This document shows positions 2,932 to 58,608 of a DNA stretch of 64,000 bases, piece after piece. Each line of letters starts with the position of its first letter. Within the stretch, counting starts at the first letter, position 1. Source of the stretch: a virus; IMG/VR virus record IMGVR_UViG_3300027792_000010. One strand, 5' to 3'. The position numbers and the translations under genes were made by a program. The notes beneath the pieces were generated by a model, which was not told where the DNA came from, made no database searches, and was given only the letters and a program-made list of their open reading frames with translations.

Positions 2932-3040
2932 CGGAGGGTGAGGGATTTGAACCCCCAAACCCGTAAGGGTGACGGTTTTCGCCGGAACATCTCATGGGTG
3001 TGCCGACAAGACCGTTGACTTACCATTAGCCTAACCCTCC
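2932..3040 (-). tRNA. tRNA-Ser(UGA) with 27-nt insertion in the anticodon (2980-3006)
   Basis: GGAGGGT acceptor, G73, long V arm; removing 27 nt restores ACGGT-CTTGAAA-ACCGT. Confidence 0.85.
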
Positions 3041-9643: not shown

Positions 9644-9755
9644 TGGTGGTAGAGAGAGGATTTGAACCTCTGTACCCCGAAGGGAGCGGATTTGCTAAGT
9701 TCACCGCTCGGATGAACTTAACAGTCCGCCGCTTTTTCCACTCAGCCACTCTACC
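9644..9755 (-). tRNA. tRNA-Tyr(GUA) with 27-nt insertion in the anticodon (9694-9720)
   Basis: Tyr-type body (G1-C72, A73, V arm CCC-TTCG-GGG); removing 27 nt restores GCGGA-CTGTAAA-TCCGC. Confidence 0.85.
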
Positions 9756-11179: not shown

Positions 11180-11208
11180 AATATACCATTTTGTAGAACC
11201 AAGATCAA
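11180..11208 (-). promoter_or_regulatory. sigma70 promoter of attenuator 1 (TTGATC-N17-TATATT, TGG before -10)
   Basis: Same architecture as the other three attenuator promoters. Confidence 0.85.
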
Positions 11209-19767: not shown

Positions 19768-20573
19768 TCTTTAATGGCTAACCTATTAGCTGTTTCTACT
19801 ATAGGTACCAAATCAAGTGCATAGAGCCCACCACAGCTAAAACTATTAATCTCCATGAGGTAGTAGCTACCCCTGCTGAGGCATATATCAACTATGTACA
19901 TAGGATCAGGTTTGTACTCTTCCGCAGCTATTACATCAGCAAGCTCTTTAGCTTTAGGATCATAGCCTTCTTGAAAAGATAGTTTTCCATCCCTTTCATA
20001 CTGACACCCAGTTATTACTTTACCTTCAGCGCAGACGAATCTCCATTCCCCATCGATAATCTTAGGAGTAGAGATAATAACCATACTGTCGGGATCAGAG
20101 AACTCTTCTACCCAACGCCACAAGGAAGGCACATTATATTTGCTATATACTCCAGCTGTCCATGGTTTTAGTCCTGAACTCGGTCTAAAGAAAAGCTCTT
20201 CACGAACGAAACATTTGTCATAAAGCCAATCAAGTCTTCTTAGAACATCGGCTCTTGGGAGCATGACATACTCCCAGTTGAAGAGATATTTCCCGAAGTG
20301 AGCATAGTATCTGGTACATTCATAGTTTTTTGCTGTGAGCCAGGGTCCAGGAATCCATTGTTTTTCACGCTGAAGCTGCTGTGCAAGATTGATTGATCCT
20401 TGGAAGAGAACGCAATCGTTTCCCCCGAATATATCATAGGAGCCAGCCTGGAATGGAGTGTAGGTGATAACTTCAACATCACATCCTTGCCGTCTACATT
20501 CATCGGCAAGAGGACCGAATTTGTTGTCCGGTTCGAAATCTTCGATGACCCATTTTGGTCGTATACTAGACAT
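19746..20573 (-). CDS. ATP-grasp domain protein (DUF4343/R2K-like)
   Basis: FFRPSSGLKPW, EWRFV, YIVDI, MEINSFSCGGLY. Confidence 0.8.
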   Translation of the reverse strand: MSSIRPKWVIEDFEPDNKFGPLADECRRQGCDVEVITYTPFQAGSYDIFGGNDCVLFQGSINLAQQLQREKQWIPGPWLTAKNYECTRYYAHFGKYLFNWEYVMLPRADVLRRLDWLYDKCFVREELFFRPSSGLKPWTAGVYSKYNVPSLWRWVEEFSDPDSMVIISTPKIIDGEWRFVCAEGKVITGCQYERDGKLSFQEGYDPKAKELADVIAAEEYKPDPMYIVDICLSRGSYYLMEINSFSCGGLYALDLVPIVETANRLAIKEWEDYQK

Positions 20574-20705
20574 CCTATGCTCCTACAGTTAAATGATTTT
20601 CTTAGATAATGAGTTTGATATACAGGTTGTACACCACTTGATAAAAAACGGATAATAGGTTTTTCCCAGGGGTCATCTGCTAACCACAGATTACTTCTCG
20701 GAGTT

Positions 20706-20918
20706 TCAAAAAAGTCTTTTATCATTACTTTGTTCATGTAATTTTTTATCCTCTAAAGATTTTAAATACTCCAGATATAGAAAGGATTTCCCAATGATCG
20801 GTGATCCATAAATAGCGTTAAAAGGTGGTACATACCAAGGATCATCTGAACGCCAGGAACGAGCACTCTCTCGATCCATTATAACTAATTGCCTACCTTC
20901 AGTATCTACATAGACCAT
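20706..20918 (-). CDS. small protein with WxSDDPW motif
   Basis: SWRSDDPWY; AGGAG RBS. Confidence 0.65.
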   Translation of the reverse strand: MVYVDTEGRQLVIMDRESARSWRSDDPWYVPPFNAIYGSPIIGKSFLYLEYLKSLEDKKLHEQSNDKRLF

Positions 20919-21001
20919 TCGTAATCTCCTATATGATGGATATTTTCGTAGTGTTCCATTAATTCTTCTATTGTTTTTTTATATCATAGGAATCTATTAT
21001 C

Positions 21002-21061
21002 CTATTCAAAATCTTTCCTATCCCCCCAAGGATCATCGCTGTCCCAGGTTTCTTGAAGCAT
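21002..21061 (-). CDS. 19-aa micro-ORF MLQETWDSDDPWGDRKDFE
   Basis: GGAGG upstream; carries the repeated motif; overlaps the end of 21033..21329. Confidence 0.5.
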   Translation of the reverse strand: MLQETWDSDDPWGDRKDFE

Positions 21062-21329
21062 CTCTCCAGCCTCCTAAAGCCTCTACTAACTTTTTGGCTT
21101 CTTGATTTGATACTGACATCTCAAAAGTACTTGTATGCCCCCCATGAAAGTATCTAAAATCTACCAAGAACCAAGGATCGTCAGAGTACCACGGGGTCGA
21201 TAAATTGACAGTCATCGGAAAGGTGCTGAACCCATGATACTTCGAAAAATGAGGGACCTGTGCCACACCTGTGCCACAATCTACTCTTATAATCAACCAG
21301 GGGTCATCTGCTAACCACACTTGATCCAT
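21033..21329 (-). CDS. small protein with two Wx[AS]DDPW motifs
   Basis: VWLADDPWL and PWYSDDPWF. Confidence 0.7.
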   Translation of the reverse strand: MDQVWLADDPWLIIRVDCGTGVAQVPHFSKYHGFSTFPMTVNLSTPWYSDDPWFLVDFRYFHGGHTSTFEMSVSNQEAKKLVEALGGWRDASRNLGQR

Positions 21330-21507
21330 ACTTACTCTCTAATATTAAGGGATCTTTCCTTAACTCCTCCATAGTAACATTTATTTCTTCCATCGAAGGC
21401 ATAGGAGGAACAATAATTGGCTTAAACCATCCCCAAGGATCATCAGAAAACCAAATATCGTGATTATAAACACATAAGGTTGGTTTAGATAACTTAATAG
21501 AACTCAT
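21304..21507 (-). CDS. small protein with WxSDDPW motif
   Basis: IWFSDDPWG. Confidence 0.65.
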   Translation of the reverse strand: MSSIKLSKPTLCVYNHDIWFSDDPWGWFKPIIVPPMPSMEEINVTMEELRKDPLILESKYGSSVVSR

Positions 21508-21558
21508 AAAACTAATATACTATTTGGAAAACTCAAATTAAATAAGTTTCCAAAAGTC

Positions 21559-21852
21559 TTAGTTAGGGATACGAAATTTAGGAGGGCAATCTTGCTGGGA
21601 GGCACATAACTTTTTTTCAAACTCTTCTGCTTCTTTATCCCAATCTCTACCATCATATTGATGAAGTTTATCATAGGCACATGAAGCACAATAATATTCG
21701 AACTCATCCTCTCCTGTTGGAGAAGCCCATATCGGCTCCCCAATTACTGCTTCCTTGCACATACAATCGTAAGGATCTTCTACCTTGAAATTACACCTTA
21801 GAAAGTGCTCATCTAATTCTTCTTCCCTCGTGGTCATAATCCTTTCCTCCAC
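21559..21852 (-). CDS. hypothetical protein, Cys-containing
   Basis: CMCKE and YYCASC. Confidence 0.6.
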   Translation of the reverse strand: MEERIMTTREEELDEHFLRCNFKVEDPYDCMCKEAVIGEPIWASPTGEDEFEYYCASCAYDKLHQYDGRDWDKEAEEFEKKLCASQQDCPPKFRIPN

Positions 21853-21860
21853 ATCTTTGC

Positions 21861-22073
21861 TCAGCCTCCTGAAGTCTCAAAGTACATAGCTAACATAGCT
21901 TCTTCAGTTATCCAAGGATCGTCAGAAATCCAGATAACTTTAGTACTACCTAATAGATCTATAACTTTTGCTACCGCAGGATCTACTGAGCTATACATTT
22001 TTCTATAGTACCTTCTCTTCTTTAGCTCCTCTGATATCAAAGAATCGTCAGAATCCTGTAGTTTCATTAGCAA
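21861..22073 (-). CDS. small protein with WxSDDPW motif
   Basis: IWISDDPWI. Confidence 0.65.
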   Translation of the reverse strand: MLMKLQDSDDSLISEELKKRRYYRKMYSSVDPAVAKVIDLLGSTKVIWISDDPWITEEAMLAMYFETSGG

Positions 22074-22389
22074 AAGCCTTTATATCATTATATGTTTCTT
22101 CATCTAAATATATAGTATTAGGTACTAAAGGAAAATTAGTAATACGATCAAAAGCTTCCATAATGTCGTTTATAACCCAAGGGTCATCTGAGTACCATAT
22201 CTTACCACATAGCGTATCTACTTTTATCAAATCACGATCTTTTAATAGGTCGTGATAAGAACCGTCATTAGACTTTGCTGTATCTAAGTTCCAATCAGCA
22301 TTTACGCCATATACAGAATAATCGCTAGGGCAGTTTCGCTTTGCTTCCTCATAGTTGTCCCACACTGTCCCTCCAGCATAATCTTTCAT
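22048..22389 (-). CDS. small protein with WxSDDPW motif
   Basis: IWYSDDPWV. Confidence 0.7.
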   Translation of the reverse strand: MKDYAGGTVWDNYEEAKRNCPSDYSVYGVNADWNLDTAKSNDGSYHDLLKDRDLIKVDTLCGKIWYSDDPWVINDIMEAFDRITNFPLVPNTIYLDEETYNDIKAFANETTGF

Positions 22390-22516
22390 GCGTCATGCGC
22401 CCCTTTTTCTTTGGTGTGCCTTGCTCTTTAAAGTAGGTTTCATAGTTTGTAGTGTGACCGATAGTGTAAATCATAGCAATAATATACTAATTAGGAAGGA
22501 AGTTTTAAATATAAAA

Positions 22517-22605
22517 CGGAAGGTACAGGATTTGAACCTGTGAAGGTATTTAAACTCCCTGACGGTTTAGCAAACCGTTGCAATAGGCCGCTCTGCCAAC
22601 CTTCC
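22517..22605 (-). tRNA. tRNA-Ser(GCU)
   Basis: Class II, G73, loop TTGCTAA. Confidence 0.95.
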
Positions 22606-22645
22606 ATTATTTTTTCTTTATGTTTCTTTTGTCCATAATCGAAAA

Positions 22646-22722
22646 TGGTGGGAGTATCACGAATTGAACGTGAGACCTTTCGGTTATCAGCCGAACGCTC
22701 TAACCATCTGAGCTATACTCCC
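22646..22722 (-). tRNA. tRNA-Ile(GAU)
   Basis: Loop CTGATAA, CCA encoded. Confidence 0.95.
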
Positions 22723-22737
22723 TATAAGCTATTAGGT

Positions 22738-22813
22738 TGGTAGCGGAATGTTGGAGTTGAACCAACTTAACCAAGTTTATGAGACTCGGTGAGATGCCGA
22801 CCTCCCACCCGCG
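22738..22813 (-). tRNA. tRNA-Met(CAU), initiator-like
   Basis: C1 mismatch, CGCGGG start, loop CTCATAA; acceptor stem imperfect. Confidence 0.8.
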
Positions 22814-22825
22814 ATGTATTTAAAA

Positions 22826-22896
22826 TAGTGAGAATCAGAATCGAACTGATCTAAACAGGATATGAGCCTGTTGAGGGGCCACTCCTCAATCTCACT
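22826..22896 (-). tRNA. tRNA-Met/Ile2(CAU), identity uncertain
   Basis: AGTGAGA/TCTCACT acceptor, loop CTCATAT. Confidence 0.8.
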
Positions 22897-22905
22897 GTAT
22901 GTTTA

Positions 22906-22981
22906 TGGCGGGGACGACGGGTTACGATCCCGCTCTCTTTGGCTTGACAAGCCAATGCTTTCCCGATTAAGCTACGTCCCC
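22906..22981 (-). tRNA. tRNA-Asp(GUC)
   Basis: G73, loop TTGTCAA, CCA encoded. Confidence 0.93.
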
Positions 22982-22991
22982 TAATATTTAA

Positions 22992-23474
22992 TTAATCCTC
23001 ACCTTCATAATCTATGATAGGTACTATTCTTACGTTCCTATCCTTATTGCCCCTAAGTATACGCTCAGCCTCTTTGTAACTATCGAATACTGTACTATCT
23101 ACAGTTCCTATTAAGGGGTCCAAAAATACATACCCTACTTTAAGACCTTGTTTCTTTAGATTCTCCAAAGCTGTATCTAAGTATTCTATCTTCTGCTTCT
23201 GTAATACAAATCCTATATTCAAATCAAAGACACGAACTAATTCATCATACTCTTTGTCTGGTAGGAATCCCTTCAAAAGGCATAAAGAACCTACGCAGCT
23301 TTCTAAGTATTTTCCGATTTTCAGAGAATGAAGTACATAGTAATAGCCATCCTCGTCTTCATCGAATCCTACTAATCTCACAACTTCGTGGAAGTCTATA
23401 AGTAGTTCTCCTTTATGTTTCTCTATAAACTCTAAAATCTCTGGCTTAGGATCTTTAAACTCTGATATGTCCAC
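22992..23474 (-). CDS. hypothetical protein
   Basis: 160-aa ORF between tRNAs, AGGAG RBS. Confidence 0.7.
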   Translation of the reverse strand: MDISEFKDPKPEILEFIEKHKGELLIDFHEVVRLVGFDEDEDGYYYVLHSLKIGKYLESCVGSLCLLKGFLPDKEYDELVRVFDLNIGFVLQKQKIEYLDTALENLKKQGLKVGYVFLDPLIGTVDSTVFDSYKEAERILRGNKDRNVRIVPIIDYEGED

Positions 23475-23495
23475 TATATACTCCTAAGAAAAATA

Positions 23496-23571
23496 TGGTG
23501 CCGCCTTTCGGAGTTGAACCGAATTCTTTAGCTCTTCAGGCTAACGCAATCACCGGACTTGCTCAAGCGGC
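23496..23571 (-). tRNA. tRNA-Phe(GAA)
   Basis: Loop CTGAAGA, CCA encoded. Confidence 0.95.
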
Positions 23572-23621
23572 ATATAATTTGCCTTTGTAATTCTCTTACA
23601 TCAGATAGGCTATATTAAAAT

Positions 23622-23657
23622 AAAAAAGCCCCCGAACTTCTCAGTCCGGGGGCTTTT
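23622..23657 (-). terminator. attenuator 2 intrinsic terminator
   Basis: AAAAGCCCCCGGAC...GTTCGGGGGCTTTTTT. Confidence 0.92.
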
Positions 23658-23680
23658 ATAAGCTACTTGTTTACCCGGAC

Positions 23681-23758
23681 CTATACAATACTATCAAACA
23701 TACTATCAAAACTGATAGTATCGCTGTTGATGATAATGCTGAAAGTAGAGGTACACAT
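23681..23758 (-). CDS. attenuator leader peptide 2 (25 aa) MCTSTFSIIINSDTISFDSMFDSIV
   Basis: AAGGA RBS; antiterminator GTCCGGG (23674-23680) directly after the TAG. Confidence 0.88.
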   Translation of the reverse strand: MCTSTFSIIINSDTISFDSMFDSIV

Positions 23759-23798
23759 TGAAAATAGTTTTCCTTGAAAAAGTTTTTGTTCTGTCTTT

Positions 23799-23827
23799 AA
23801 TATACCACTTTGTAATACAAAGATCAA
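23799..23827 (-). promoter_or_regulatory. sigma70 promoter of attenuator 2
   Basis: TTGATC-N17-TATATT with AAGTGG before -10. Confidence 0.85.
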
Positions 23828-23834
23828 ATAAATT

Positions 23835-24110
23835 TTAAGAATACATCAAAGTATCTGAAAGAGACTTAGGCATAGACATACTCCTCAGGTACCCACCACC
23901 ACCTGTCCCCTGGTGCTGAGTAGGCTTAATCGGGGCGTGAGTGCTATCACCCTGCACAACTGGATTGTAGTTCTGAGAGTTGTCTACAACGTTACCGCTA
24001 GTATTACCCATCTTTTGATCTCTTGGACTAGTTGTCCCCCGTCCTGTATTATTCTGCGTAAAACTTGCCATACCAGCAAAGACTACATCTACTGATTTAT
24101 CTGCTGCCAT
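23835..24110 (-). CDS. hypothetical low-complexity protein
   Basis: AAGGAG RBS; G/T/N/S-rich. Confidence 0.65.
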   Translation of the reverse strand: MAADKSVDVVFAGMASFTQNNTGRGTTSPRDQKMGNTSGNVVDNSQNYNPVVQGDSTHAPIKPTQHQGTGGGGYLRSMSMPKSLSDTLMYS

Positions 24111-24279
24111 AATTATACTCCTTTACTAAACAAAAATTCAATACAATCACTTATATAATATATATTAAAAGATTATATGATTCAATTTATTTTGCTATAT
24201 CTAAAACTTTATTAACATCCTCATATGGAGTATCTTGACCTTATATTTCATCAGAGAACAAATTATTAGATAGGTCTTA

Positions 24280-24474
24280 TTAAACTAAAGGTTGAGGCTT
24301 GTTAATAGGCTCAATTAAAACGTAGGTACTATCCTCTTCAGTATTGTACCAAAAAATGAGTTTGCCATGATGCTCCGTAAAACAATCTAAAAGAGATGCC
24401 TTATTTCCACAAGGTTTTATCTTCTGATGCTTTTTTAAAGCCCTTTCAATTAACTCTTGTTTCAATTTATCCAT
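24280..24474 (-). CDS. hypothetical protein
   Basis: ORF track. Confidence 0.55.
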   Translation of the reverse strand: MDKLKQELIERALKKHQKIKPCGNKASLLDCFTEHHGKLIFWYNTEEDSTYVLIEPINKPQPLV

Positions 24475-24566
24475 CTTGGTATCCTTACATAGTATACTTA
24501 AAAATTATCTGTATAAGTAGATAATTATAGTATTAGTCTAATTCTACCATTATCATCTCTAATATC

Positions 24567-25088
24567 TTATTGCCAACATTTTTCATAGTCTTTATTTATA
24601 CCAGAGATATATGCAAGTATATCATAAATATAGCTGTTAGGATTAATATATCTATTTACTTTTCTAAACTCTTTTTCGTCTAATCCTAAAAGTCTATTTA
24701 TGAATAAACCAACGGCACCACTTCTTGAAGTACCTGCGTCACAATGTACTACTAGTACACCTACATGTTCATCATTAAGTAACTTTACGAAATCTAGTAT
24801 CTTATGAGCATCTGTTTCATCAAACAAACGTAACCCAGAATCTAATTTTTTTGGGGTAATAGATTTTATTCTTTCAAACTGTTCTTTAGATATATCACCA
24901 AAACAAAGATTTAAAATGCTTTTGCAATTCATCCTATGCATGAGTTCTACTTTATCATCTGTAATTAGTTTCTCTGCAGGGGTGCTATATATAGAGATGA
25001 GCGCCCAACTTAGAGATGATATAGTCTCCTGATTCGTTATCACATCCGTAATAACTTTCCTCGGAAAAACACGTATATGCCTTATCAT
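24567..25088 (-). CDS. protein-tyrosine/dual-specificity phosphatase-like protein
   Basis: VVHCDAGTSRS (CX5R). Confidence 0.85.
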   Translation of the reverse strand: MIRHIRVFPRKVITDVITNQETISSLSWALISIYSTPAEKLITDDKVELMHRMNCKSILNLCFGDISKEQFERIKSITPKKLDSGLRLFDETDAHKILDFVKLLNDEHVGVLVVHCDAGTSRSGAVGLFINRLLGLDEKEFRKVNRYINPNSYIYDILAYISGINKDYEKCWQ

Positions 25089-25870
25089 ACTGTTTTTACT
25101 TTCACTTTATAGGTTTTGTAGAAATCTCTGGTGATATTATGAAACTCTTCCGGTAGTAATTCTACAGTTTTTTGAGCAATATCTTTAGGGATTTCTTTAT
25201 AGAAAGCCTGAGCTATACCTCCGGCAATACATGCCATAGTATCCGCATCGCCATTAAGTCTTATAGCTTTTTTGATCGCGTCTATAAAGGAATCGGACTC
25301 AAGAAAACAAATGATAGATTCAGGTACTGACCCCTGACACGTCGCATCGAATTTGTAGGTCGGTGCGATATCTACCAGAGTACGATTAAGGTCATATCCA
25401 AAACTTTTTGATATGACTCTCTTAATCTCTTCTTTGGATTTCCCAATGCGTGCCATATAAACTGCTAAAGCTGTAGCTTGAGCACCTTTGATACCTTCTG
25501 GATGACTATGAGTACACTCTGCGCTTTTTTTAGCCTCTTCTAAGACCTTCCTAGGGTTATCAAAAGCATACCCTATAGGACTTACCCTCATGGCAGAACC
25601 ATTGCCAAAACTATTAAAAGGGGCATTAGAAGAAGAATCTAACCAATCTTGAAACATCCCGCCATATCCCCGACCTGGGTATCTATTACCGAAGTCTTTG
25701 TAACACTCACCATAGCTCTTCCCCGTTAGGATGGCTGAGCAGGTAGCGAAAGACATTACAGAGTCATCCGTGTAATCAGTCCCATCTGCAAACAATTCAA
25801 AATCATATACTTCTGTTTTCTTCCATTCATATGCACTCCCGATCACGTCACCTATGCAGGCACCCAGCAT
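25085..25870 (-). CDS. ADP-ribosylglycohydrolase (DraG/ARH family)
   Basis: GACIGDVIG, YTDDS, GNGSAMRVSP, NGDADT; start moved to MLGAC. Confidence 0.92.
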   Translation of the reverse strand: MLGACIGDVIGSAYEWKKTEVYDFELFADGTDYTDDSVMSFATCSAILTGKSYGECYKDFGNRYPGRGYGGMFQDWLDSSSNAPFNSFGNGSAMRVSPIGYAFDNPRKVLEEAKKSAECTHSHPEGIKGAQATALAVYMARIGKSKEEIKRVISKSFGYDLNRTLVDIAPTYKFDATCQGSVPESIICFLESDSFIDAIKKAIRLNGDADTMACIAGGIAQAFYKEIPKDIAQKTVELLPEEFHNITRDFYKTYKVKVKTV

Positions 25871-26802
25871 GATATACCGCCTTTCACTCTTTCTTTTTCG
25901 TATCCCAACCATTCTTTCCACGATATCCAACCTTTATTTAGATATGTACGGCTAGGAAAAGAAGGTATAGTGATTGGTCTACTACCACTTTTACAAAAAC
26001 ATTCCCATTCGGTTTTACTTTGTATATTAAATTTTTTAATATATTCTTTAGCTTCTGAATAGGGCATAAAACCTGTTTTTAAGACTATTATACCTTTTAT
26101 TTTATAAAATTTATTATATTTTCTTAACAATTTTAAGCTACTATCTCTATACATGAAATCTCTTAATAGTATTGAATTATTGTTAGAAAACCTTGTGCTA
26201 TAATAAATGCTGTCTTTAGGTCTTGTATAGTCAAATAACTTTTCACCCTTTTTTCTAACTTTTATGTAAATAATACCGTGTATACCTTTTATGCTACTTT
26301 CTATTGCTTCTAATAATTTATATGCTAACTCTTTGCTCCCTGAAGTGAAATCTGTTTCAAGATTATTATTATCTTTTAGAATGCTCACGCTCCCATCTCC
26401 GTCAAAGTACCCTCTAATAAAGTCTGGTAAATATTCCTGAGGGACTGTTGGAAATCCAATATCTAAACTTTTTCTTTCTTTTCCTCCAAGATTTTTTATA
26501 TCTTCAATTATTTCTTTTGAGTAAATACATATAAAATAATTATTTTTACAAGTTTTCTTTATAGGATGATTAGATTCCATAACTTTTAAAATATTTTCTA
26601 ATATATATTTGTCATTTTTATGCTGGCTTATTCCAAAGCATTCTTTATCTATAAATCCATCGGCCCACCAAAATCCTAAAACATAGGCCATATCTTTAGT
26701 CCAAATTTTAAAAAAATCTTGATTAACGTTATATCTTCTTGCCCCCTGATTCCACTTATTTTTCCAACGTTCCAATTTTTCTGATTGTGCTTCTTTGCTC
26801 AT
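25852..26802 (-). CDS. LAGLIDADG homing-endonuclease-like protein with extra C-terminal domain
   Basis: YVLGFWWADG and FIRGYFDGDG motifs. Confidence 0.85.
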   Translation of the reverse strand: MSKEAQSEKLERWKNKWNQGARRYNVNQDFFKIWTKDMAYVLGFWWADGFIDKECFGISQHKNDKYILENILKVMESNHPIKKTCKNNYFICIYSKEIIEDIKNLGGKERKSLDIGFPTVPQEYLPDFIRGYFDGDGSVSILKDNNNLETDFTSGSKELAYKLLEAIESSIKGIHGIIYIKVRKKGEKLFDYTRPKDSIYYSTRFSNNNSILLRDFMYRDSSLKLLRKYNKFYKIKGIIVLKTGFMPYSEAKEYIKKFNIQSKTEWECFCKSGSRPITIPSFPSRTYLNKGWISWKEWLGYEKERVKGGISCWVPA

Positions 26803-26947
26803 CTTTCCCTCTATTTTCTTCCTCTATATAGCTATCAATTATCCTTCTTAAAAATTCTGCTTTAGAGATTCCCATCTCTTCAGATTTGTTTTTAAGAAAC
26901 TCTTGCTCTTTATCTGATAGACATATTTGAGTCCTGTTAAGTTTCAT
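26756..26947 (-). CDS. ribbon-helix-helix (CopG-like) DNA-binding protein
   Basis: RTQICLSDKEQEFL...GISKAEFLRRII. Confidence 0.75.
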   Translation of the reverse strand: MKLNRTQICLSDKEQEFLKNKSEEMGISKAEFLRRIIDSYIEEENRGKDEQRSTIRKIGTLEK

Positions 26948-26989
26948 CTTACATCTCCATTACATCAAGTAGATGTTATTAATAGGTTA

Positions 26990-27691
26990 TTAAAGTTTAA
27001 CTATATTTTCATATAACATGTGGTATTTTCCAAAATCTATATTATCGTGCCAATGCCCACACCACAGGCTATTGAATGTAGTGTTTTGACAGACATGTTC
27101 TAAATATTTCTCGGTAGGATCAACCCTACCAATTTCACGACATAATCCTATAGACTTCAGGTATGTTTCGGCTATACTTGATGGAGCGGTATGAGCCAAA
27201 ATATAATCTACAGAATATTGGTGCTGCTCCAGATTCTGTAGCCCTAAATCCATCTCAGACCAACTTGGTATTTCTTCAGGCCACCATGACTTTCCTTCTG
27301 TCCTTGTAGCTTTATCTATACTTTGCGCGCCACCCATAACAAAGAATTTTTTACCCTCTATGGTATAGATGTGCCCTCTTTTAAGGTGAAAGATACTATC
27401 TGAGACCTTACCTACTTTACTCCCAAACATATCTATTTGTTCGAGGGCATATAGTCTGGGATGGTTCTCATGGTTACCACAAACAAATAATGTTGTAAAA
27501 GGTTTATTAGATAGCCACCAAGTCCAATAACTCTCTGTAGGGCTAGGGGTATTATCCCACACCAGCCCAAAGTCACCGAGAATGATTAGATAATCATTCT
27601 TGGTGAGCTTTACTCCTTCAGGCCACCTCTTTGCTGATAGCTTATGTATGTCGGTGTCACCGTGAGTGTCACCAGTTAAAAACGTCGCCAT
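26990..27691 (-). CDS. calcineurin-like metallophosphoesterase
   Basis: GDTHG, LGDFG, GNHEN, GHWH. Confidence 0.92.
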   Translation of the reverse strand: MATFLTGDTHGDTDIHKLSAKRWPEGVKLTKNDYLIILGDFGLVWDNTPSPTESYWTWWLSNKPFTTLFVCGNHENHPRLYALEQIDMFGSKVGKVSDSIFHLKRGHIYTIEGKKFFVMGGAQSIDKATRTEGKSWWPEEIPSWSEMDLGLQNLEQHQYSVDYILAHTAPSSIAETYLKSIGLCREIGRVDPTEKYLEHVCQNTTFNSLWCGHWHDNIDFGKYHMLYENIVKL

Positions 27692-27794
27692 TTTTATATA
27701 CCGCCTTAAGTATCATAGGATAAGGAGAACTTATTTTAATCACGTCACGCCAGGGGTCGTCTGCTTCCCTCACATCATCAGATAATATACTTTT

Positions 27795-27992
27795 TTACAA
27801 ATTAGTTCTACAAAGATTATAAGAGCGCTGGATAAAGTCAAAACGTCTTTCCTTAACCTGAGTCAAAGGGATCATTGGATTTTTACAGATTTCAAACAAA
27901 GGAGGTTTAAATCTATACAGCCTATTACCAAATAAATCATATATCCCATCAAACCAAGGGTCATCTACTTCCCAGACTTTATTATCTTTCAT
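27795..27992 (-). CDS. small protein with WxVDDPW motif
   Basis: VWEVDDPWF. Confidence 0.65.
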   Translation of the reverse strand: MKDNKVWEVDDPWFDGIYDLFGNRLYRFKPPLFEICKNPMIPLTQVKERRFDFIQRSYNLCRTNL

Positions 27993-28150
27993 TTATACTT
28001 TAACTCTAATGAGAATATACTACTATGTTCTATACGCATAGGTACACACTACATCACCTATAATAAATAAAGGAACTTTATCTCGTATAAAACCATGATC
28101 ACTACACCAGGGGTCATCTGCTAACCATACTTTATTCGCTAATAGTTCAT

Positions 28151-31930: not shown

Positions 31931-33292
31931 CCGTTCTGAAAAACTTATAAAATCTTTGCAAGACTCATGTTTTCTTCCTGCTTCATAGAAACAGCTTCTT
32001 GACCTATACAAGCATCTTGAAGTCTTATACTTTCTCCACAGGCTTTAATTCCCGACGAACTATCGGTATTTTTAAGTTTAATTAATACATACTTTTCAAG
32101 ATTAATAGATGCATTTAAGTCTCTATCTATGACATTTCCACAATCACATATATAAATCCTATCTTCTAAAGTAAGGTCTTCTTTCAAACAACCACAAACA
32201 GAACACGTCTTACTTGAAGGAAAGAACCTATCTACTTTAATTATGGAACCTCCATACCAAGAGGTCTTATAGGTTAGTTGCCTTTTAATTTCATTAAAAG
32301 AAGCATCTCCTATAGCACCTGCAAGTTTATGATTTTTCATCATACCAGAGACGTTTAAATCTTCTAAAACGATGTATCTTGGTTTGGTTTTCGCCAAAAT
32401 ACTTGTCATCTTATGAAGAGTATCTTTTCTTTGACTACTAATTCTTTTATATATCTTTTGTACTTTTAATTTACTCTTTAATCTATTATTACTTGATCTT
32501 TTAGTTTCTTTATCAAACTTTTTACGAGCTAAATCCTTTTGAGCATGAGCTAACTTTTTCTTTGATTTTTTAAGATACTTAGGATTTTCAAATATTTGAC
32601 AATTAGAACATGTAGCTAATGTTTTAATGCCTACATCAACACCTAAAACAGATTCTATTTGGTTTACTGGTTCTGGTATATCTTGTTCTACTTGAACAGA
32701 TATATACCATCTATCAGCTTCTTTGGAGACTGTCATAGAGTTTATTTTAACATCTTTAGTTGTTATATAACCTTTTTCTTTAAGTTTTACATAACCGACT
32801 TTAGGAATATTGATTGTTGAATTAGTTATATAGAACCCAAAGGAAATCCTAAAAGAATCTTTGTCTTTATGTTTTGACTTGAACTTAGGGAAACCTACTT
32901 TTTTACCTTGTTTCAAACCTCTAAAAAAGTTTTTGAAAGCTGTATCTAAATCCCTTAATGCTTCTTGAGGAGCCATTTTGGATATATCATACATCCAATG
33001 ATAATCAGTTTTCTTCTTACTACATAAAATTTTATGTTGATCTATAGCAGTTAAGGTTTTCTTTTCTGACTTATAAAGTTCTATACGTTCATTTAATCCC
33101 CAATTATAAGCAAAACGAGCACATCCAACACTCTTTTCTAAAAGAGTACGTTGTTTATTATTAGGATTAAGTTCTACTTTATATGCTCTATTTATCTTCA
33201 TTTTCTTTATTCTTCTTAGTCATATGACTTCTTCTACCATAAATTTTAGCTGAATAACAAGACATAATAGTTAAGATATCTGTTAGATTCCC
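31931..33292 (-). mobile_element. IS607-family element carrying only tnpB (no tnpA)
   Basis: Left end GGGAATCTAACAG, right end TAAGTTTTTCAGAACGG, GG at both junctions. Confidence 0.75.
31945..33201 (-). CDS. tnpB: RNA-guided endonuclease TnpB
   Basis: RAYKVELNP HTH; RuvC D (GVDVG), E (VLEDL), D (DRDLNA) intact; zinc finger CSVC...CDC. Confidence 0.95.
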   Translation of the reverse strand: MKINRAYKVELNPNNKQRTLLEKSVGCARFAYNWGLNERIELYKSEKKTLTAIDQHKILCSKKKTDYHWMYDISKMAPQEALRDLDTAFKNFFRGLKQGKKVGFPKFKSKHKDKDSFRISFGFYITNSTINIPKVGYVKLKEKGYITTKDVKINSMTVSKEADRWYISVQVEQDIPEPVNQIESVLGVDVGIKTLATCSNCQIFENPKYLKKSKKKLAHAQKDLARKKFDKETKRSSNNRLKSKLKVQKIYKRISSQRKDTLHKMTSILAKTKPRYIVLEDLNVSGMMKNHKLAGAIGDASFNEIKRQLTYKTSWYGGSIIKVDRFFPSSKTCSVCGCLKEDLTLEDRIYICDCGNVIDRDLNASINLEKYVLIKLKNTDSSSGIKACGESIRLQDACIGQEAVSMKQEENMSLAKIL

Positions 33293-34452: not shown

Positions 34453-34537
34453 CTATATGTCTGTTTATTACTCTTAGCTAATCCTTAAAACTATATAATA
34501 ATAAACTTCTTATTGAGAGTTCTATATTAATAAGTTA

Positions 34538-34608
34538 TGCCCCTAATTGGTCTCGAACCAATGACTCCTGTTTTAGAGACAGTTGTTTTACCACTAAACT
34601 ATAAGGGC
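34538..34608 (-). tRNA. amber-suppressor tRNA (anticodon CUA)
   Basis: GCCCTTA/TAGGGGC acceptor, A73, arm (A)CTGT-CTCTAAA-ACAG(G). Confidence 0.85.
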
Positions 34609-34614
34609 ACATAA

Positions 34615-36651: not shown

Positions 36652-37638
36652 TTATAAGTTATTATCCAAATAGCTCATCCAAAATATTCTAGCTTTATTG
36701 GATATAAACGATCCCATCTTTTTAGGATCTATACCATTTTTAATAATGGTATCCTGTTCTTCCTTCATTACATCACTATATACCCACCTTATGTATTCTC
36801 CGGTGGTAGATTTATCCAGAGGATTCCCAAGTTCTTTCATTTTGTCGATGCCTTGCTGCATCCTATTTTCAGTTACAGCATATTCAACAAACTCTTTTAC
36901 ATTTTCTACCTCTTCGGTGTCGATAGAGGCAAGTTTCTTAACTTTACTATTCTGATGCTTCTCACCTTTCACCTTAAAGATATATCTTTTGGTATCATCT
37001 ATATATTCCCAAACTATTCCTTCCCCCAAACCACCTATCCCAAAGTATTTACCCACAGGGCATTCTTCTTCTACTTTTATAGTAAGCTCTACTAGTTTAT
37101 TCTGAGCTATTTCTGGCTTATTGAAGTCTATATCCAGTTCATAGTTCTCAAACTGAAGAATATTGAATATCTTTTTATCCTCATTCTTAAGATGCTTGAA
37201 TTGCTCTATAGGCTTATAGACATCATCTATTCTAATTGCAAAAATTACCCACATGACAGGTAGTTTACTTATAGCTACACATTTTTGTATGCCAGAACCA
37301 CACCACTCTCCATAGATAGCACAACTGTCATTAAATTCTATACCTTCAAAAATCTTGTCTATGTCTCTATTCGTCATGGTAAGCATAAAACGGTAATTAT
37401 CAGATTCTATGCTCAACAACCTATCTTTACTTTGATATTCATAATGTCCATCTTTATATTTAACAATGGCTGAGTTTGTGCCGTGAAGTTTTATGGTCCC
37501 ACGGAACTTTAGAATAGGATAATCAGTCTCATGCCTATAGACAGGAGCACCTGTTTTATCCTCACCTTTATAATCATGGTGAGATTTAACTGCTCTGATA
37601 ACTTCTCTGAATTGTCCTATATCGGTAAATTTTTTCAT
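36652..37638 (-). CDS. ATP-dependent RNA ligase (Rnl2-like)
   Basis: TIKLHGTN (motif I), YGEW, GEGIVW, FKVKGEKH. Confidence 0.85.
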   Translation of the reverse strand: MKKFTDIGQFREVIRAVKSHHDYKGEDKTGAPVYRHETDYPILKFRGTIKLHGTNSAIVKYKDGHYEYQSKDRLLSIESDNYRFMLTMTNRDIDKIFEGIEFNDSCAIYGEWCGSGIQKCVAISKLPVMWVIFAIRIDDVYKPIEQFKHLKNEDKKIFNILQFENYELDIDFNKPEIAQNKLVELTIKVEEECPVGKYFGIGGLGEGIVWEYIDDTKRYIFKVKGEKHQNSKVKKLASIDTEEVENVKEFVEYAVTENRMQQGIDKMKELGNPLDKSTTGEYIRWVYSDVMKEEQDTIIKNGIDPKKMGSFISNKARIFWMSYLDNNL

Positions 37639-40482: not shown

Positions 40483-41424
40483 TTATTCAAAGTGAATACG
40501 TTTGATTGCATCTACAAACATACTTGATACATCGATTGTTTGAATGAACTCCTCTGAGTAATCTATTCCTGGTCTCCAAACTGTATTTGTAACATGTACT
40601 TTATTTATTGGGGATCTCTTCATATCCCATATAGCATCCTTAGTTAGTATTCCGTGTATAGCACAAGCATGAATTTCTATCGCTCCATTTGACTTAAGAA
40701 CTTCTGCAGCCTTTATCATGGACTTACCCGAGGCTATCTCGTCATCAATAATAATGCATATTCTACCTTTAACATTTCCAACTAGACTTGTAATTTGAGG
40801 ATTCTCCGTATCATCAACACGAATTTTACTCATGTATGCTACGGGAAGCTGACATAGCTCAGCGTACTCTGTAACCATTTTAGAGCTACCAGAGTCCAGG
40901 GCAACTAAAGTGGTCTTGTTGAAGGATACCTCTTTCTTAAGGTATTGATAGATTATCTCTTTCGGTACAAGATGATCTGTAGGAATCCTAAAAAATCCCT
41001 GAGTTTGCGGAGAATGTAAATTCATGAACATTGCACGGCTGGCACCTGCGGTTTGAAGAAGATCCGCCAGAAGACGAGCAGTGATAGATGTTCTGGACTC
41101 CCCCCGTTTGTCTGACCTGCAGTACGGATAATAAGGAAGAACGACTGTGATACGTCCGGCGCTTGCGTGCTTGAGAGTATCGATCATTATGAGCAGTTCC
41201 ATTATTCGTTCATTCTGATTAGGATAATTAGGCTGTATGATAAAGATATCATCACCGCGAACAGACTCTTCCACCTTAAATTTGATGTTGTCATTAGAAA
41301 ATATCAAAGAAGTTGTTTTCAATCTGGGAAGATAACTTTCTGTCACCAAATATTCTAACAATTTCGATTCAATCATATTATATAAGGGAAGTTGCTCACA
41401 TCCTGTCATGATGCGAAGTCTCAT
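40483..41424 (-). CDS. prs: ribose-phosphate pyrophosphokinase
   Basis: MELLIMIDTLKHASA, PYYPYCRSD, IIIDDEIASGKSM. Confidence 0.93.
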   Translation of the reverse strand: MRLRIMTGCEQLPLYNMIESKLLEYLVTESYLPRLKTTSLIFSNDNIKFKVEESVRGDDIFIIQPNYPNQNERIMELLIMIDTLKHASAGRITVVLPYYPYCRSDKRGESRTSITARLLADLLQTAGASRAMFMNLHSPQTQGFFRIPTDHLVPKEIIYQYLKKEVSFNKTTLVALDSGSSKMVTEYAELCQLPVAYMSKIRVDDTENPQITSLVGNVKGRICIIIDDEIASGKSMIKAAEVLKSNGAIEIHACAIHGILTKDAIWDMKRSPINKVHVTNTVWRPGIDYSEEFIQTIDVSSMFVDAIKRIHFE

Positions 41425-57267: not shown

Positions 57268-58608
57268 TCAGTTGATACTGTAGTTTGCCCTAATATACAA
57301 CAATGCTTGTTCTTTTGTTGTAACAGTACCTTCCAATTGTTCAGTGTCTACTGCTTCAAGAATCTCTTTGAATTTAGGTCCGGGTTTGAAACCCATAGCA
57401 ATAAGGTCATTACCATCTACCAATCTATCTGGAAGGATGACCTTACCTCCTGGTTCCTCTGCAAAAGAATCCATAGCTTCTTTAACAAACTGCAAATTAT
57501 CTAATCCTCCATGAGAAGACAAACAATCAGCCTTGTGAAGTTGCAAGTGCTCTTCAAATCTATCCATAGCTATAAATCTCTTAAGCGTGGACTTCCTCAT
57601 GTCCCGTATTACACAGAACTTCATATGGTTCTCAATTAGGGAACAAACCCTATCTATAAAATAATTTGAAAACTTCAACCTGGTTAATAGCTCTCTGGCT
57701 ATATGAGAGCCTTTAATATCATGTCCATTGAACACTAACCGACCTTTCCTATCATCCCAAGCTTTAGTAGTGGGCTTTCCCACATCATGCAACAAAGTAG
57801 CCCACAAAAGCTCTGGGGAGGCTTCTTTTGGGAGGTAATTCAAGGTGAGACAGGTGTGTTTACCGACGCACCCTTCTGGATGAAAGTCCACAGGCTGCTC
57901 ACACCCAAACATATCTTGAATTTCTGGCAGGATATGCTTTAGTATACCAAAATGTTCCAAATCCTTAAGAGCTTCTCCTCTGACTTTACTTTGTTCCAAT
58001 ATTTTTGTCAACTCATCTGCTATTCTCTCTACAGATATTTTCTTGATAAGGATACTATTATCCATTATAGCTTTCTCTGTATCGGAGTCCATAGAGAACC
58101 CCAAACGGTGTTTGAACCTTATGGCCCTCATTAATCTTAAGTGGTCTTCCAATATTCTCTCTTCAGGATCACCTATGAACCTAATTAATTTATCTTCTAT
58201 ATCTTTTCTACCGCCTACGTAATCATAGTACTCCTCAAGGGTAGGGTCATAAAAGATACCATTGATAGTGAGGTCTCTCCTGTTAGCATCCTCTTCCATA
58301 GTAGAAAACTCAACACTTGAAGGATGTCTACCATCCAAGTAAATACCTGCGTCTCTTCTAAAAGTAGCGACCTCAAATTGAATCCCATCAAGTATAACAA
58401 TTATTACGCCAAAAGCTTTCCCTACTTCTATATTATTAGGGAACAGTTCCTGAACTTGGTGAGGAAAAGCAGAGGTAGCTATATCATAATCATGCGGCAT
58501 AACACCCATAATTTGGTCACGATTGCAACCGCCAGCAAATACCGCTTGATATCCTGCGCTCTGTAGAATTTTAATAATACCTACAGCAAGTTCTTTTTGC
58601 TTATCCAT
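57268..58608 (-). CDS. cca: CCA tRNA nucleotidyltransferase with HD domain
   Basis: AGGCNRD, HDYDIAT, RRDLTING, DHLRLMRAIRF, LLHDVGK. Confidence 0.93.
   Translation of the reverse strand: MDKQKELAVGIIKILQSAGYQAVFAGGCNRDQIMGVMPHDYDIATSAFPHQVQELFPNNIEVGKAFGVIIVILDGIQFEVATFRRDAGIYLDGRHPSSVEFSTMEEDANRRDLTINGIFYDPTLEEYYDYVGGRKDIEDKLIRFIGDPEERILEDHLRLMRAIRFKHRLGFSMDSDTEKAIMDNSILIKKISVERIADELTKILEQSKVRGEALKDLEHFGILKHILPEIQDMFGCEQPVDFHPEGCVGKHTCLTLNYLPKEASPELLWATLLHDVGKPTTKAWDDRKGRLVFNGHDIKGSHIARELLTRLKFSNYFIDRVCSLIENHMKFCVIRDMRKSTLKRFIAMDRFEEHLQLHKADCLSSHGGLDNLQFVKEAMDSFAEEPGGKVILPDRLVDGNDLIAMGFKPGPKFKEILEAVDTEQLEGTVTTKEQALLYIRANYSIN

Follow-up and report, generated by a model that had tools for sequence, protein, structure and literature searches.

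The leaders of amino-acid operons in E. coli and Salmonella, such as trpL, hisL, pheL, leuL, thrL and ilvL, are similar in several respects to a leader unit that we describe here from the genome of an uncultured large phage. Like the phage unit, they possess a short ORF close to the promoter that contains a run of control codons, 1:2, 2:3 and 3:4 pairings that exclude one another, and a terminator upstream of the regulated genes. In these leaders, a ribosome at the stop codon of the short ORF covers the antiterminator strand, as is also proposed for the phage unit. Moreover, thrL and ilvL are multivalent, and the phage leader likewise samples several amino acids. Different from the amino-acid operon leaders, which regulate biosynthetic enzymes, the phage unit would regulate tRNAs; it is also phage-borne, its codons match tRNAs at the isoacceptor level and it occurs in one copy per tRNA block. 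Ribosome-mediated attenuation requires that transcription and translation are coupled, which is not the case in all bacteria. In Rfam searches, His_leader (RF00514) and Thr_leader (RF00506) aligned full-length to positions 23620-23742 on the correct strand. The scores for His_leader, Thr_leader and Phe_leader (RF01859) were 36.1, 32.9 and 19.7 bits, respectively, below the gathering thresholds of 49, 55 and 55 bits. Thus, the phage unit is not a member of these sequence families.

Two other systems act on the translation apparatus. The pheM leader of E. coli pheST, which encodes phenylalanyl-tRNA synthetase, uses attenuation at Phe codons to feed the supply of an aminoacyl-tRNA back on itself. 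While pheM controls the charging enzyme for one amino acid, the phage leader would control tRNA genes, with five specificities in one leader. T-box riboswitches resemble the phage unit in that they respond to tRNA status at the anticodon level and switch between a terminator and an antiterminator before genes of the translation apparatus. However, T-box RNAs bind uncharged tRNA directly, via a specifier codon and the T-box sequence, and need no ribosome, whereas the phage unit contains a translatable ORF. No match to the T-box covariance model (RF00230) was found in positions 22400-23900 at E-values up to 10.

To our knowledge, little is known about how the expression of phage tRNAs is controlled. 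No description of leader-peptide attenuation of tRNA genes was found in a literature search, which covered few subscription journals and does not prove absence. What is new in comparison with the known attenuators is the regulated product, i.e., tRNA genes that are matched to the leader by anticodon, in a phage and separately for each tRNA block. We interpret the locus as a ribosome-mediated leader-peptide attenuator that gates a phage tRNA operon, so that tRNAs are made when ribosomes lack them, and put the probability of this reading at roughly 0.7. The same reading had been proposed in an earlier note on this DNA, and it is supported here by the conservation of its parts, both in four orthologous variants and in three paralogues, as well as by predicted folding.

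The leader unit and its tRNA operon

The sequence analysed, called the window below, comprises 64,000 nt of IMG/VR record IMGVR_UViG_3300027792_000010. The locus was found where the earlier note had placed it, with the whole unit on the minus strand (Table 1). From the promoter sequence, transcription would start near position 23792. The distance between AAGGA and AUG is long when compared with that of neighbouring genes, where AGGAG is found 6-7 nt upstream of the start codon. Thus, initiation at the leader ORF may be weak. In the orthologues, the AAGG core was retained at 11-13 nt from AUG. An alternative start in another frame behind AAGGA was rejected, as that frame contains an in-frame stop in the orthologues. 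The unit therefore has a short ORF with a start codon and AAGGA just behind a promoter and upstream of tRNA genes, which is the arrangement expected of an attenuator.

Table 1. Features of the leader unit, the tRNA operon behind it and the paralogous units of the window
Feature	Position	Strand	Remarks
-35 hexamer TTGATC	23827-23822	minus	
Extended -10 TGgTATATT, 17-nt spacer from -35	23807-23799	minus	Invariant in 5/5 orthologous variants
Shine-Dalgarno-like AAGGA, 12 nt upstream of AUG, in 5' UTR of ~35 nt	23775-23771	minus	
Leader ORF, 25 sense codons plus TAG	23758-23681	minus	ATG 23758; TAG 23683-23681
Region 1, 5' strand of long leader hairpin, codons 2-15	23713-23753	minus	Two compensatory pairs in helix
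Region 2, 3' strand of leader hairpin, antiterminator strand	23674-23708	minus	Ends with G-GTCCGGG, 23681-23674
GTCCGGG, immediately 3' of TAG	23680-23674	minus	
CCCGGAC in 5' arm of terminator	23650-23644	minus	Exact reverse complement of GTCCGGG
Region 3 core CCCGGACU	23643-23650	minus	Alternative partners: region 2 (antiterminator) or region 4
Intrinsic terminator hairpin (regions 3:4)	23657-23624	minus	15 pairs, 8 of them G-C; -26 kcal/mol
U-tract of terminator	23627-23617	minus	
tRNA-Phe(GAA), first gene behind terminator	23496-23571	minus	ARAGORN
160-aa ORF with its own AGGAG ribosome-binding site	22992-23474	minus	Position conserved in relatives
tRNA-Asp(GTC)	22906-22981	minus	ARAGORN
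tRNA(CAU), first copy	22826-22896	minus	ARAGORN
tRNA(CAU), second copy	22742-22812	minus	ARAGORN
tRNA-Ile(GAT)	22646-22722	minus	ARAGORN
tRNA-Ser(GCT)	22516-22606	minus	ARAGORN
Paralogous unit, leader rich in His/Leu/Cys/Trp/Thr/Ala codons	11208-10972	minus	Ahead of matching tRNA block
Paralogous unit, leader rich in Asn/Pro/Gln codons	38639-38428	minus	Ahead of matching tRNA block
Paralogous unit, leader rich in Val/Lys/Arg codons	61643-61440	minus	Ahead of matching tRNA block

Codons 6-24 of the leader ORF form the control run, which is composed of three Phe, five Ser (all AGY), five Ile (all AUY), three Asp and one Met codons together with one Asn and one Thr codon. The earlier note had listed these codons, with GAT AGT occurring twice, and the list was correct on re-reading. 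Under strict wobble rules, the six downstream tRNAs define a cognate set of nine codons. The cognate codons accounted for 17 of the 24 sense codons after AUG, compared with a fraction of 0.20 in the long ORFs of the window (binomial P ~1e-7), where the 19 codons of the run are partly non-independent because of a 12-nt direct repeat and an inverted repeat, GAU and AUC being mutual reverse complements. When the 254 ORFs of the window that start with AUG and span 20-40 codons were ranked by cognate fraction, the leader ORF came first (0.71, next 0.52). In addition, a scan of every 19-codon window in the six frames of the 64 kb returned a stretch with 17 cognate codons only here. The lone Thr or Ala codon in the run is explained by its position as the pairing partner of a Ser AGY codon across the hairpin.

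The match extends to the choice among synonymous codons. In the control run, Ser is encoded five times and always by AGY, which accounts for 37.5% of the Ser codons in the phage genes (P 0.007). Ile is likewise encoded five times and always by AUY, despite a 49% share of ATA among the Ile codons of the phage genes (P 0.035). Hence, the codon match is at the level of the anticodon, or isoacceptor, and not of the amino acid alone. The tRNA-level reading of the Ser AGY codons in the earlier note is thereby supported on the sequence side and is extended to Ile. These codons also bear on what the leader may sense. Any shortage of a charged tRNA stalls ribosomes, amino-acid starvation included, as in trp- and his-type attenuators, and an attenuator that senses general translation speed or starvation for Phe, Ser, Ile and Asp, rather than tRNA species, would have the same architecture as a tRNA-sensing one. 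The operon would then be tied to the translational state. With such a sensor, however, Ser and Ile codons would not be expected to be confined to AGY and AUY in a phage whose genes are dominated by UCN and AUA. Moreover, four leaders in the window each match the anticodons of their own tRNA block, and an extra tRNA is of no help when the amino acid itself is missing. We therefore regard starvation or translation speed as an unlikely signal and favour the scarcity of particular tRNAs.

Behind the terminator, the 160-aa ORF lies among the six tRNA genes (Table 1). It matched no Pfam family, gave no usable match in a protein atlas and had zero matches in IMG/VR. Its AlphaFold model had a pLDDT of 59.7, too poor for a structure search. 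Eight homologues were found in a large protein collection, on contigs from freshwater sediment, soil and other metagenomes. Metatranscriptome contigs from two runs matched the region perfectly only at 22422-22572 and 22874-23024, with none on the leader, and these matches are uninformative on transcript starts, transcript ends or attenuation.

Alternative pairings of the leader transcript

The leader transcript has three predicted pairings of which neighbours are mutually exclusive. In the 1:2 hairpin (-24 kcal/mol), codons 2-15 pair with codons 16-25 and GUCCGGG; the z-score for the fold of the full leader was -5.4. In the full-length minimum free energy structure as well as in the alifold consensus, GUCCGGG is paired with codons 2-5. 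The 2:3 antiterminator is formed by GGUCCGGG with CCCGGACU, which gives 8 bp and -12 to -14 kcal/mol. The complementarity between GTCCGGG and CCCGGAC in the terminator, pointed out in the earlier note, is exact, and a spacer of 23 nt separates GTCCGGG from the terminator hairpin. The 3:4 hairpin is the second strongest intrinsic terminator of the window. When random 42-nt windows were compared with the segment next to the stop codon, 98.6% of them paired less well than this segment with the terminator arm of the unit (P 0.014). The 2:3 helix is much weaker than the terminator and can thus act only kinetically. When the transcript was folded at equilibrium up to a point before region 4 and without a ribosome, 2:3 formed rather than 1:2. 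Among the orthologues, the 2:3 helix is invariant and shows no covariation. Its sole comparative support thus comes from the paralogous units.

To model the effect of a ribosome, a 29-nt footprint was masked around each A-site codon in turn, and the RNA was folded as far as the terminator loop. Region 3 had 8-11 bases paired with region 2 when the A site was placed at codons 3-21. When it was placed at any of the last three codons or at the stop codon, only 0-3 bases of region 3 were so paired. The same pattern was obtained in all five variants. The earlier note had suggested that a ribosome at the stop codon masks GTCCGGG and that a stalled one frees it, and the modelled folding is consistent with this suggestion.

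The proposed attenuator may work as follows. The host RNA polymerase would initiate at the TTGATC-17-TGgTATATT promoter, and a ribosome coupled to the polymerase would translate the 25-codon leader. When charged tRNA-Phe, tRNA-Ser(GCU), tRNA-Ile(GAU), tRNA-Asp and tRNA-Met are plentiful, the ribosome would arrive at the stop codon and cover GTCCGGG. With GTCCGGG covered, the 5' arm of the terminator would pair with its 3' arm, and transcription would end at the U-tract, before tRNA-Phe. When any of the cognate tRNAs is scarce, the ribosome would stall within codons 6-21 and open the 1:2 hairpin, and GTCCGGG would pair with CCCGGAC. Once 2:3 has formed, no terminator would be made, and transcription would read through into tRNA-Phe, the 160-aa ORF, tRNA-Asp, the two tRNA(CAU), tRNA-Ile and tRNA-Ser(GCU). 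The newly made tRNAs would relieve the stall, which amounts to a regulatory response by negative feedback.

Orthologous variants and paralogous units

Four further variants of the unit (L002/L014 type, L011, L010 and L012) were identified in other metagenomes via homologues of the 160-aa ORF and one pattern match. The latter came from a metagenome scan with a pattern of the leader apex and GTCCGGG, which returned one contig (L014), identical to the L002 type. A megablast search of INPHARED phages with positions 20000-28000 returned nothing beyond a 50-nt match to tRNA-Ile. In IMG/VR, a strict promoter pattern had no match, and a loosened one had 40 matches, mostly by chance, with no attenuator-like unit among them.

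Across the orthologues, the fixed elements are the promoter hexamers, the eight bases up to and including AUG, the control run, the stop codon position, the GTCCGGG/CCCGGAC pair and the terminator. Sequence drift is unrestricted in the 5' UTR and in the 2:3 loop. The leaders of L002 and L010 contain 19 cognate codons out of 24, as counted by hand from the peptides. Each substitution in the control run is either synonymous, a change that keeps the codon in the cognate set or brings it there (Phe to Ile, Asn to Asp), or a change compensated across the hairpin. In the orthologue alignment, 98% of the cells were paired, compared with 33-46% in slid controls. Compensatory changes were found at four pairs among the orthologues, evenly divided between helix 1:2 and the terminator. 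Comparison of L012 (347-581) with L010 (1509-1732) further revealed an in-frame 12-nt repeat, encoding Phe-Asp-Ser-Met, with three copies in L012 and two elsewhere. The extra unit contributes four more cognate codons. The repeat also indicates that the control run can lengthen by slippage with the frame intact.

The substitutions are spread over codon positions 1, 2 and 3 as 6, 3 and 5, respectively. Given this spread without third-position bias, they carry no protein-type signal of translation. It might thus be the RNA structure alone that is selected, as in a pause or processing site or a riboregulator that binds a protein or a tRNA, with an ORF that is incidental to hairpin-building repeats. 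Such an RNA would account for the conserved leader hairpin of -24 kcal/mol with its compensatory changes, for a codon run made of direct and inverted repeats, for the missing third-position bias and for the poor Shine-Dalgarno spacing. It would not account for a start context and a stop position that are constant in all variants despite a change between TGA and TAG with a 1-nt indel, nor for the fact that the sole indel within the ORF is 12 nt long and in frame. In addition, four unrelated leaders each spell their own tRNA set, and no match of the unit to T-box or another riboswitch family was found even at E-values up to 10. Taken with these observations, a function of the structure alone appears quite unlikely, and a leader that is translated remains the preferred reading.

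All four orthologues have TGA as the stop codon of the leader; the 1-nt indel follows the stop and leaves frame and codon position unchanged. In the window, two of the four leaders end in TAG (23683-23681 and 38497-38495). ARAGORN identified a tRNA with a CUA anticodon at 34537-34609, which is inside the operon that one of these leaders would gate. TAG is the ordinary stop of 12 of the 82 ORFs in the window, and the standard code 11 fits the window genes. The earlier note had mentioned the amber stop together with the CUA tRNA. Both are real, but a link between them is not conserved, as the orthologues all use TGA, and the amber stop was dropped as a part of the mechanism. If TAG were suppressed, the frame would run on through the terminator as far as a TAA in the U-tract, save for one TAG six codons on.

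In all four orthologues, tRNA-Phe starts 2-3 nt past the U-tract. A separate promoter would not fit in between, so that the gene can be expressed only via readthrough of the terminator. The tRNA-Phe genes of L002 (2904-2979) and L014 (6623-6698) start 3 nt after the U-tract and are very different from that of the window, which indicates replacement of the tRNA-Phe gene behind a retained leader in this lineage. Two of the orthologous loci also carry insertions. The one in L002 (3665-4268) contains an unusual tRNA, for which the ARAGORN call was Tyr(ATA), and an HNH-like ORF of 168 aa, and the one in L011 (1128-1934) contains an ORF of 268 aa between tRNA-Phe and the 160-aa ORF.

The 64 kb contain exactly four copies of the 29-nt promoter design, at 11208, 23827, 38639 and 61643, all on the minus strand. 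A short ORF, a terminator and a tRNA block come after each of them (Table 1). When the four leaders were compared with the four tRNA blocks, the diagonal of the matrix held 17, 17, 11 and 10 cognate codons, while the off-diagonal values were 0-7. The true assignment of leaders to blocks was the best of the 24 permutations (55 vs. 41). Likewise, each unit has a stop-proximal segment that is complementary to the 5' terminator arm of the same unit (empirical P 0.002-0.014 each; Fisher combined P 1.3e-6), and the cross-matrix is again diagonal. Given that the four unit sequences are mutually unrelated, this diagonal match represents covariation at the level of design. In ribosome-mask folding of the other three units (A1, A3 and A4), the control runs end where the formation of 2:3 is lost. 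The same logic was found in two A4 orthologues, whose run of Val, Lys and Arg codons is even purer.

The terminators of the four units are the four strongest intrinsic terminators in the window on either strand. Strong stops at the starts of operons are hard to explain except as regulated stops. However, sRNA genes also have the anatomy of a strong promoter with a strong terminator behind it, and the unit could thus encode a stand-alone sRNA of ~175 nt or contain a constitutive, leaky terminator, with a coincidental codon match. Coincidence at P ~1e-7 would have to be repeated in three paralogues and in the orthologues. Moreover, the operon needs readthrough where tRNA-Phe abuts the U-tract, as in the four orthologues, and the complement of the antiterminator adjoins the stop codon in all four units. 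An sRNA gene or an unregulated terminator is thus very improbable, and the four terminators are better explained as parts of attenuators.

Two observations were made on related loci in other contigs. Between an A4-type terminator and the next ORF and tRNA-Lys, L055 (4190-4410) possesses a G+C-rich stretch of ~230 nt that is probably structured and is the same in L056. The stretch is present neither in the window nor in L057, and it matched no Rfam family at the gathering score. L049 (9338-9620), from the 131-kb record IMGVR_UViG_3300027792_000292, contains two copies of a promoter very similar to that of the units, TTGATC-N17-aTGGTATATTAG, each ~70 nt before a tRNA gene. No recognisable leader ORF or terminator lies between these promoters and the tRNA genes, which indicates that in another phage this type of promoter drives tRNAs directly.

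Possible role in tRNA supply and neighbouring genes

Phage tRNAs have been discussed as supplements to codon usage and, recently, as replacements for host tRNAs that were destroyed by defence nucleases (PMC10264068, PMC11555353, PMC11464382). Such an answer of phage tRNAs to tRNA-cleaving defences provides a plausible selective reason for the unit. It is conceivable, as a tentative extension of the attenuator reading, that the four units are isoacceptor-specific tRNA homeostats. Each operon, together with embedded genes such as that for an RNA ligase, might be switched on only when its own tRNAs are missing, for instance after the action of anticodon nucleases or other tRNA-targeting defences. 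The units might then constitute a counter-defence that is inducible and limits itself, and would be the first example of tRNA genes controlled by leader-peptide attenuation. If the attenuator reading as such is right, the phage would measure decoding capacity anticodon by anticodon and top up only the missing tRNAs, and attenuation would be extended from the supply of amino acids to that of tRNAs. The leader would also serve as a readable label that predicts the tRNAs of one transcription unit, and its codons make the hypothesis of tRNA depletion directly testable by codon swaps.

Two genes related to tRNA metabolism lie close to tRNA genes of the window, both on the minus strand. An RNA ligase gene (phrog_548, 36652-37638) is inside the Asn/Pro/Gln tRNA operon, and a gene for a CCA-adding tRNA nucleotidyltransferase (phrog_2244, 57268-58608) is near the Lys/Val/Arg block. 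Judged from their annotations, the two enzymes form a kit for tRNA repair and maturation that adjoins the tRNA genes. In addition, Rfam tRNA matches of 109 nt at the gathering score were found at 9647-9755 and 2932-3040 on the minus strand. They were not called by ARAGORN and may be tRNA genes with an insertion or an intron.

The window also contains a transposase-like gene (phrog_506, 31945-33201, minus strand). Its best match, at 78%, was to a 5-kb contig in an Altiarchaeales MAG, which is probably a misbinned relative of the phage. Its other matches, at 32-59%, were in cyanobacteria and others and indicate no host. Finally, an ADP-ribosylglycohydrolase gene is located at 25085-25930 and a gene similar to those for ribose-phosphate pyrophosphokinase, with a weaker match to nicotinamide phosphoribosyltransferase, at 40483-41424, both on the minus strand. 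Host-takeover or NAD-related functions are possible for these two genes.
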